Shown here in pieces: positions 14,990 to 15,239 of a DNA stretch of 31,163 nucleotides. Numbering within the stretch: position 1 is the stretch's first letter; the number at the start of each line of letters is the position of its first letter. The notes under the pieces were generated by a model that did no database searches, was not told the origin of the DNA, and saw only the letters and a list, made by a program, of their open reading frames with translations. Both the position numbers and the translations under genes were made by a program. This DNA comes from a virus (taxonomy: Duplodnaviria > Heunggongvirae > Uroviricota > Caudoviricetes): IMG/VR virus record IMGVR_UViG_2541047775_000006. One strand, given 5' to 3'.

Positions 14990-15066
14990 TGGCGCGTTGT
15001 ACTGGATTCGAACCAGTGACCGATTGCTTAGAAGGCAATTGCTCTGTCCGGCTGAGCTAACAACGC
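14990..15066 (-). tRNA. tRNA-Arg (anticodon UCU)
   Basis: 77-nt minus-strand cloverleaf: perfect 7-bp acceptor stem, GCTC/GAGC D-stem, anticodon loop CTTCTAA, T-arm GGTTCGAATCC, 3' CCA encoded. Confidence 0.85.
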
Positions 15067-15082
15067 AGGATACAGATAATGA

Positions 15083-15156
15083 ACCGCCTTCGGGGACCCG
15101 AACTCCGCGCAACCAGCTTCGAAGGCTGGCGCTCTTTCCTGATGAGCTAATGGCGG
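15083..15156 (-). tRNA. tRNA-like element, anticodon UCG (Arg), possibly degenerate
   Basis: Folds as cloverleaf with perfect anticodon stem (CCAGC/GCTGG, loop CTTCGAA) but mismatches in acceptor and T stems, atypical T-loop TTCGGGT, no encoded CCA. Confidence 0.45.
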
Positions 15157-15163
15157 TATGTGA

Positions 15164-15239
15164 TGGTGGCCCTTGCTGGATTTGAACCAGCGACCTGGCG
15201 ATTATGAGTCGCTCGCTCTCACCACTGAGCTAAAGGGCC
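15164..15239 (-). tRNA. tRNA with CAU anticodon, tRNA-Ile2 (lysidine)-like
   Basis: 76 nt; closely resembles E. coli tRNA-Ile2 as I recall it. Anticodon loop CTCATAA, T-arm GGTTCAAATCC, CCA encoded. Ile2 versus Met cannot be settled without comparison. Confidence 0.8.

Follow-up and report, generated by a model that had tools for sequence, protein, structure and literature searches.

Three tRNA genes ahead of the lysis genes form a textbook cassette of Shiga-toxin-type and related Escherichia coli prophages, and the copy described here raises the question of whether its middle gene still yields a working tRNA. This copy lies in a stretch of 31,163 nucleotides, which was analysed as a whole and which we call the window. 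It is a lambdoid prophage whose head genes are of the HK97/P27 type and whose late genes lie on the minus strand. A first-pass annotation of its sequence had suspected that the middle gene is a pseudo-tRNA, or else an element with a non-decoding role.

Identity and setting of the cassette

Across the 31 kb of the window ARAGORN detects three tRNAs and no more, each of them on the minus strand. The Rfam tRNA model (RF00005, gathering score 29 bits) and the RefSeq annotation call the same three genes, and the first-pass annotation had given their coordinates and order exactly (14990-15239, on the late-gene strand; Table 1). The anticodons CAU, UCG and UCU follow one another in this order on the late strand, in the interval between the antiterminator gene Q and the lysis genes. 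The proposed correspondence with the cluster of Stx phages also holds. The annotated Stx2-phage clusters, from whose GenBank annotations the names ileZ, argN and argO are taken, likewise lie downstream of Q, and the suggested comparison, made with Stx2a_WGPS6 (AP012539), gives identities of 100% for ileZ, 88% for argN and 99% for argO. The trio is thus an example of the ileZ-argN-argO tRNA cassette found in lambdoid Escherichia prophages, and its carrier is a stx-less prophage of E. coli SY033. The cassette is already known: database matches to it occur in 306 phage records, and the exact DNA of the window is annotated in RefSeq. The literature that we searched contains only indirect mentions of the trio, and pseudo-tRNA variants of it have been noted in passing in stx2i prophages (PMC13641118).

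Table 1. The tRNA cassette, its predicted signals and neighbouring features in the window
Feature	Position	Strand	Evidence
Late antiterminator Q	16531..16911	-	Pfam PF06530, E = 1.4e-52; PGAP
AraC-family HTH gene (237 aa), between Q and cassette	15268..15981	-	Pfam HTH_AraC, HTH_18; PGAP
Putative sigma-70-type promoter, TTGATT-17 nt-TATTAT	15250..15278	-	Consensus scan, 9/12 matches
ileZ, tRNA-Ile2-type (ARAGORN Met/Ile2, CAT), CCA encoded	15239..15164	-	ARAGORN; Rfam, 72.5 bits; PGAP tRNA-Ile
argN allele, tRNA-Arg(UCG)	15080..15157	-	ARAGORN 15157..15081; Rfam, 43.4 bits; PGAP tRNA-Arg
argO, tRNA-Arg(UCU), AGA/AGG reader, CCA encoded	15066..14990	-	ARAGORN; Rfam, 70.1 bits; PGAP tRNA-Arg
Putative intrinsic terminator, hairpin GCUCGC-UUUU-GCGGGC and eight U	14950..14975	-	Terminator scan
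STnc100-family RNA element, between cassette and holin	14714..14913	-	Rfam RF02076, 140.2 bits
Class II (P21-type) holin, first gene of the lysis cassette	14333..14548	-	Pfam PF04971, E = 8.6e-36; PGAP
C4 antisense RNA match	21823-21910	-	Rfam, 75 bits
IsrK Hfq-binding RNA match	21932-22008	-	Rfam, 62 bits

The tRNA cluster lies 441 nt upstream of the holin gene, which is followed by YdfR, lysozyme, Rz, HNH and terminase genes. No stx genes are found in the late region of the window. In Stx2a_WGPS6, stx2AB occupies the gap between argO and the STnc100 element, and the window therefore represents the same late region with the stx site empty. In ten related loci, the STnc100 element occupies the same interval, after the tRNA cassette (or stx2B) and ahead of the lysis genes. 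In the window it ends in a terminator-like hairpin immediately upstream of the holin gene, and on the opposite strand PGAP annotates a truncated ‘hypothetical protein’. The element is sometimes duplicated in related loci, or located beside the AgvB anti-sRNA, which is absent from the window.

On the other side of the cassette, a truncated ORF separates Q from the AraC-family gene. The latter is rich in codons of ileZ and argO (5 ATA, 5 AGG and 1 AGA among 237 codons; CGA 0), and a similarly annotated HTH gene of 714 nt precedes the cassette in E. coli O157:H7 PV15-279. Further away in the window, the adjoining C4 and IsrK matches lie inside the 5' part of a coding sequence annotated by PGAP as ‘Rha family phage regulatory protein’. 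This pair suggests an RNA-controlled antirepressor module of the P1 c4/IsrK type, in which case the start of the coding sequence may be over-extended.

The cassette appears to be a compact unit, which would consist of its own promoter, tRNA-Ile2(CAU), tRNA-Arg(UCG), tRNA-Arg(UCU) and an intrinsic terminator. The -10 element of the putative promoter ends 10 nt before ileZ, and the -35 element overlaps the last codons of the AraC-family gene. A -35 element TTGnnn and an invariant -10 element TATTAT are found at a constant distance to ileZ in 39 clusters with otherwise unrelated upstream DNA. The terminator hairpin, located 15 nt past argO, has a folding energy of -12.6 kcal/mol (z = -3.0), and its pairing survives sequence changes across related clusters. 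The conserved position of these motifs points to promoter and terminator activity. Both are present in the Stx2a phage L001, where the terminator precedes stx2A; this speaks against the idea that Stx2 phages lack a terminator after argO and that the tRNA promoter reads into stx2 for that reason. A ‘pS tRNA promoter’ upstream of tRNA-Ile is mentioned for O157:H7 Stx2 phages, together with O157:H7 SNPs that affect the ‘first tRNA-Arg’ and the spacer separating the Ile and Arg genes (PMC2858043). Because the cassette is located downstream of Q, Q-antiterminated late transcription would also be expected to traverse it.

We propose that the cassette would provide extra decoders for AUA, CGA/CGG and AGA/AGG, codons that the host uses rarely and the prophage more often. 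The anticodon CAU of ileZ reads AUA once it is lysidine-modified. A check of codon usage, which the first-pass annotation had recommended for AUA, AGA and CGA, showed enrichment of all three in the prophage genes: relative to 39 host genes from the same chromosome, ATA is enriched 2-3-fold, CGA 2-3-fold, CGG 1.5-2.7-fold, AGA 5-fold and AGG 10-11-fold. The enrichment is strongest for the codons of argO, in keeping with the better conservation of argO and ileZ. It fits the usual explanation of rare-codon supply, which has been put forward also for the tRNA genes that follow Q in other lambdoid phages (PMC3636060).

Anatomy of the middle gene

The body of argN extends from 15156 to 15083, with A(-1) at 15157, the anticodon UCG at 15122..15120 and a 3' tail UCA at 15082..15080. 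In the Infernal alignment, 19 of the 21 stem pairs are standard. The exceptions are A6.A67 in the acceptor stem (15151/15089) and A52.C62 in the T-stem (15104/15094). Some stem mismatches are tolerated in natural tRNAs. The T-loop, UUCGGGU, carries G58 (15098) where the consensus is A, and A58 is near-universal in tRNA T-loops. The discriminator U73 (15083) is followed by UCA, with U74 at 15082, instead of the CCA that both neighbours encode and that is the rule among E. coli tRNA genes. The mismatches in the acceptor and T-stem, the non-canonical T-loop and the lack of an encoded CCA, on which the original suspicion was based, are thus all confirmed.

The D-arm, G18G19, U8, A14, U33 and the anticodon stem-loop (CCAGC-CUUCGAA-GCUGG) are intact. 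U54-U55-C56-G57 of the T-loop are also present, and the set of tertiary bases is broken only at G58. E. coli ArgRS uses A20, C35 and either G36 or U36 as identity elements, and at the level of sequence argN has kept these determinants, with A20 in the D-loop AUCAGGAAA and the anticodon U34-C35-G36. The gene aligns over its full length with RF00005 (model positions 1-71), with a score well above the threshold. PGAP, ARAGORN and Infernal all recognise a tRNA here, to which PGAP attaches no pseudogene flag.

The discriminator of host tRNA-Arg is A73 or G73. U73 is invariant in 29 of 29 distinct argN alleles, and is therefore a trait of the argN family and not a lesion of the window copy. In every allele examined the base at position -1 can pair with U73, as A(-1) or, in one lineage, as G-1.U73, which would give a potential eighth acceptor pair; U73 is unusual for E. 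coli tRNA-Arg. The eight-pair acceptor stem and the anticodon at ‘position 36’ that ARAGORN reports for argN are an artefact, seen only in CCA-less alleles. In CCA-bearing alleles the ARAGORN call begins one base further on, which puts the anticodon at position 35, and Infernal uses the standard register; the odd register is thus caused by the missing CCA.

MFE folding was rejected as a test of function. In the MFE structure of the window argN the T-arm is replaced by a hairpin, UUCGG-GUCC-CCGAA, to which two derived bases contribute, and a cloverleaf is not formed. However, the intact ileZ and argO do not yield a cloverleaf either, and the test therefore does not discriminate.

Variation of argN in related clusters and genomes

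An IMG/VR scan with a seed on the ileZ anticodon arm led to a sample of 72 clusters that share the same ileZ 3' end, a total in which the window and three database loci are counted. These clusters contain 50 distinct middle segments. Because the seed is located in ileZ, the sample is unbiased with respect to argN. Among these clusters ileZ is 100% identical in nearly all cases and argO 96-100%, whereas argN is 75-100% identical or present only as a fragment. Cloverleaf scoring and ARAGORN assigned 29 of the 72 clusters to a class with no stem mismatch and with an encoded CCA. The window lineage, with A6.A67, A52.C62 and G58, makes up 13/72. In a further 9/72 the gene has the anticodon UUU, is annotated by PGAP as ‘tRNA-Lys’ and is set apart from the Arg form by compensatory changes in three pairs. 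In about 19/72 argN is wrecked or absent, with the anticodon arm replaced or deleted, argN/argO fusions, 1-nt deletions or no argN at all.

Most alleles, including those of the divergent UUU-anticodon lineage, have U67, G52, A58 and CCA. Since the UUU lineage and the clean alleles share these states, the four corresponding states of the window argN are derived. The Rfam scores range from 54-56 bits for the clean alleles V1, V5 and V9, and 53 bits for V44 (A67 and UCA, with an intact T-arm), to 43.4 bits for both the window argN and its CCA-bearing twin and 43.0 bits for the argN of the Stx2a phage (A51.C63). The wrecked classes are uncalled, and alleles of the V2, V18 and V21 types receive no tRNA call. 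G58 is also present in the otherwise perfect alleles V9 and V22.

In the 39 full-length clusters, the nucleotide diversity pi is 0.005 for ileZ, 0.068 for argN and 0.012 for argO, so that argN is 5-13 times as diverse as its neighbours. The flanks are unsuitable as a neutral yardstick, because they consist of mosaic, non-homologous replacements (pi about 0.3). This leaves the 13-nt spacer between argN and argO (pi 0.19 in the same 39 clusters), which is too short for the purpose. The argN slot is under far weaker constraint than ileZ and argO, yet the family as a whole retains some: in its stems 96.6% of the cells are paired, and double compensatory changes occur at three pairs. These double changes all come from one divergent lineage, and shuffle controls are weakly positive (2/500). 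Such covariation reveals ancestral tRNA constraint and is silent on the window copy. The changes that break argN stems are concentrated in a few lineages, the window's among them.

Of the segregating sites among 11 independent loci of the window lineage, six fall in argN and one in ileZ, and argO has none (binomial p = 0.007); the excess rests on only seven events. Three of the six sites in argN are destructive (U10.C25, A50.C64 and CCA to UCA). Further changes thus accumulate in argN while ileZ and argO are near-fixed, which is the pattern expected after loss of constraint. Both ileZ and argO are intact, and purifying selection on them is strong.

The argN slot also contains forms with a different anticodon or architecture. 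The UUU relative (L075 808-881, L081, L004, L010, L078, L089 and L105), called tRNA-Lys by both ARAGORN and PGAP, has the anticodon loop CCUUUAA, in which C33 replaces the universal U33, and is followed by tRNA-Thr(UGU) and tRNA-Gly(UCC). With its compensatorily changed stem pairs it looks like an Arg-to-Lys anticodon switch inside one tRNA lineage. Elsewhere, the anticodon and anticodon-loop variants of the slot include UCU, UUU with C33, C32U and A37G. Two loci (L041 1532-1609 and L083 9205-9282) carry a chimera of the 5' half of argN and the 3' half of argO, joined at the shared CUUC-AA, which we read as evidence of tRNA-Arg recombination that deletes one copy.

A GTDB scan with the ileZ 3' end returned matches only in Escherichia/Shigella and in three odd metagenome-assembled genomes, and deeper outgroups are therefore not available. 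Exact matches in an ‘uncultured Collinsella’ assembly and in the insect symbiont Candidatus Dasytiphilus stammeri (L132 and L133) may represent contamination or a native ileX-like gene.

Among 5,426 complete E. coli genomes, 3,061 carry the cassette, in 7,593 copies altogether and as many as 13 in a single genome. We counted the argN states with short diagnostic queries, for which an exact 28-mer was required; clonal sampling inflates the resulting genome numbers. Most frequent is the wrecked V2 state (1,400/5,426 genomes; no PGAP tRNA, as checked in strain ZH193). The lesions of the window lineage in combination with CCA follow with 801/5,426 genomes (15%), including O157:H7 and O145:H28. Clean argN is found with the T-loop UUCGAGU in 797/5,426 genomes and with UUCAAGU in 504/5,426, and the Stx2a type in 399/5,426. 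The UCA allele of the window is present in 29/5,426 genomes, including O104:H4 strains. These genome counts show that argN is dispensable and that ileZ and argO are retained.

Several argN states often coexist in single genomes; in O157:H7 PV15-279, for instance, argN is lesioned at 1.17 Mb but clean in a second copy at 5.18 Mb. The ileZ of a prophage in this strain (L135 2368) is a rare variant of this otherwise invariant gene that starts with AGCCC instead of GGCCC, which creates an A1.C72 mismatch at the outermost position of the acceptor stem. The V2 state (L028 2725-2818; L134 378-477, the latter from E. coli ZH193) has kept both halves of the acceptor stem and the CCA. Its anticodon arm is replaced by the well-conserved AGACGACACGATAACAGGGTTGTTGG and its T-loop is lost, and no program calls it.

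Status of argN and comparison with known systems

We think it probable that the argN of the window is a copy in early decay under relaxed selection, poorly functional or non-functional. The four derived changes (U67A, G52A, A58G and C74U) all lie in the acceptor/T-arm half of the molecule. They should weaken its folding and the geometry of the T-loop, and the UCA tail would make the tRNA dependent on trimming and CCA addition. With these handicaps argN probably has little or no function and is drifting, and it does not represent a new kind of RNA. The substitution rate is raised relative to the neighbours and inactivation is recurrent in relatives, as in a pseudogene, but ARAGORN, Infernal and PGAP neither reject nor flag the window copy. 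The label pseudo-tRNA has thus gained comparative support, from derived lesions in a fast-evolving and often-destroyed slot, while all detectors still see a tRNA. The gene falls between the two outcomes that would have contradicted the first-pass annotation: none of the three genes is rejected by the programs, and the middle one is not canonical.

A serious, if less likely, alternative is that argN is still a working tRNA-Arg(UCG), in which the mismatches and G58 are tolerated and which helps to decode CGA and CGG in phage genes, the UCA tail being trimmed and CCA added by the host CCA-adding enzyme. The calls by ARAGORN, Infernal and PGAP, with 43.4 bits against a threshold of 29, would agree with this, and the score equals that of the genuine argN of the Stx2a phage (43.0); it is, however, 10-13 bits below that of the clean argN alleles. 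The anticodon arm, the D-arm, A20 and C35 are intact, but A58 is replaced by G, and the four derived changes sit in the half that is read by RNase P, the CCA-adding enzyme and EF-Tu. To our knowledge, E. coli has no tRNA-Arg with a UCG anticodon of its own, so that even weak activity of argN would add a new decoder, and CGA and CGG are enriched 2-2.7-fold in the late genes. Persistence of the three-lesion CCA allele in 801/5,426 genomes is compatible with tolerated function as well, whereas the UCA version is rare (29 genomes) and the slot as such is dispensable in at least 1,400 genomes. Destructive changes are still accumulating in this lineage with the neighbours fixed, which speaks against this alternative.

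No evidence was found for the non-decoding role suggested by the first-pass annotation, and we regard such a role as very improbable. The gene might serve as a processing signal, a tRNA-like argN that sets where RNase P/RNase E cleave for ileZ and argO, as a decoy for nucleases that target tRNA-Arg or a substitute resistant to them, or as an RNA that uses the UUCGG/CCGAA hairpin to which the lesions give rise. Even wrecked alleles keep both acceptor-stem halves and the CCA, but ileZ and argO are conserved whatever the state of argN. The hairpin with its two derived bases is part of an MFE structure that is uninformative, given that intact ileZ and argO also lack a cloverleaf in such predictions. 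Anticodon and anticodon-loop variants do occur in the slot, but the anticodon loop of the window is the common form, and the variation as a whole is decay-like, with deletions, fusions, unrelated replacements and, from lineage to lineage, mismatches scattered through every arm. T5-like phages are documented to carry tRNAs that escape tRNA-targeting defences (PMC11555353), but we found no link of argN to a nuclease or defence system. There is, finally, only a slim chance that the argN slot is a diversifying position, in which anticodon swaps (UCG, UCU, UUU) and loop or T-arm changes evade or soak up tRNA nucleases of host or competitor, such as colicin D-type tRNA-Arg cleavage or tRNA-Lys anticodon nucleases; the window allele would then resist such nucleases or act as a decoy for them, and would not be in the process of dying.

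The unequal fates of the three genes imply that the cassette owes its selective value to the decoding of AUA and AGA/AGG, because ileZ and argO are near base-perfect across hundreds of prophages and argN is dispensable. This is a modest comparative observation, and does not define a new kind of element. It also means that an annotated prophage ‘tRNA-Arg(TCG)’ may not always be a working tRNA, which calls for caution when codon supply or tRNA gene copy numbers are counted in EHEC or multi-lysogen strains.

The cassette of the window resembles that of Stx2 phages (Stx2a_WGPS6, 933W-type) in its anticodons, order, spacing and position past Q, in the conserved promoter and terminator and in the near-identity of ileZ and argO. 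In contrast to these phages, the window has no stx genes between the cassette and STnc100, and it has an AraC-family gene in the interval between Q and the cassette. The argN genes also differ in their defects: that of the Stx2a phage combines A51.C63 and G.U pairs with a CCA, and that of the window has A6.A67, A52.C62, G58 and UCA. The closest relatives are found in other stx-less prophages. The cassette of AR_0013 is 100% identical over all 261 nt, and those of FORC_043 and O104:H4 2009EL-2050 are identical or near-identical. Phage PhiR49_2 has the same late-region order as the window, but carries a clean argN allele (V6).

The tRNA precursors of phage T4 lack CCA, although every tRNA gene of the host has one, and like them the argN of the window would need 3' trimming and the CCA-adding enzyme. 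However, the CCA-less form is the native functional state in T4, whereas the UCA of the window is a rare and recent C74U change in a family that normally encodes CCA. Phages SfI, Sf6, ST64T and P21 carry tRNA-Asn/Thr downstream of Q, in the same slot and with the same proposed role in supplementing codons (PMC3636060), but the tRNA species are different and decay of a single member is undescribed there. The anti-defence tRNAs of T5-like phages, the only phages for which defence-evading tRNAs are known, are likewise phage-borne genes whose sequence matters beyond codon supply (PMC11555353). Unlike the argN of the window, they are intact and expressed, have specific changes in the anticodon loop and belong to lytic phages (PMC11555353).
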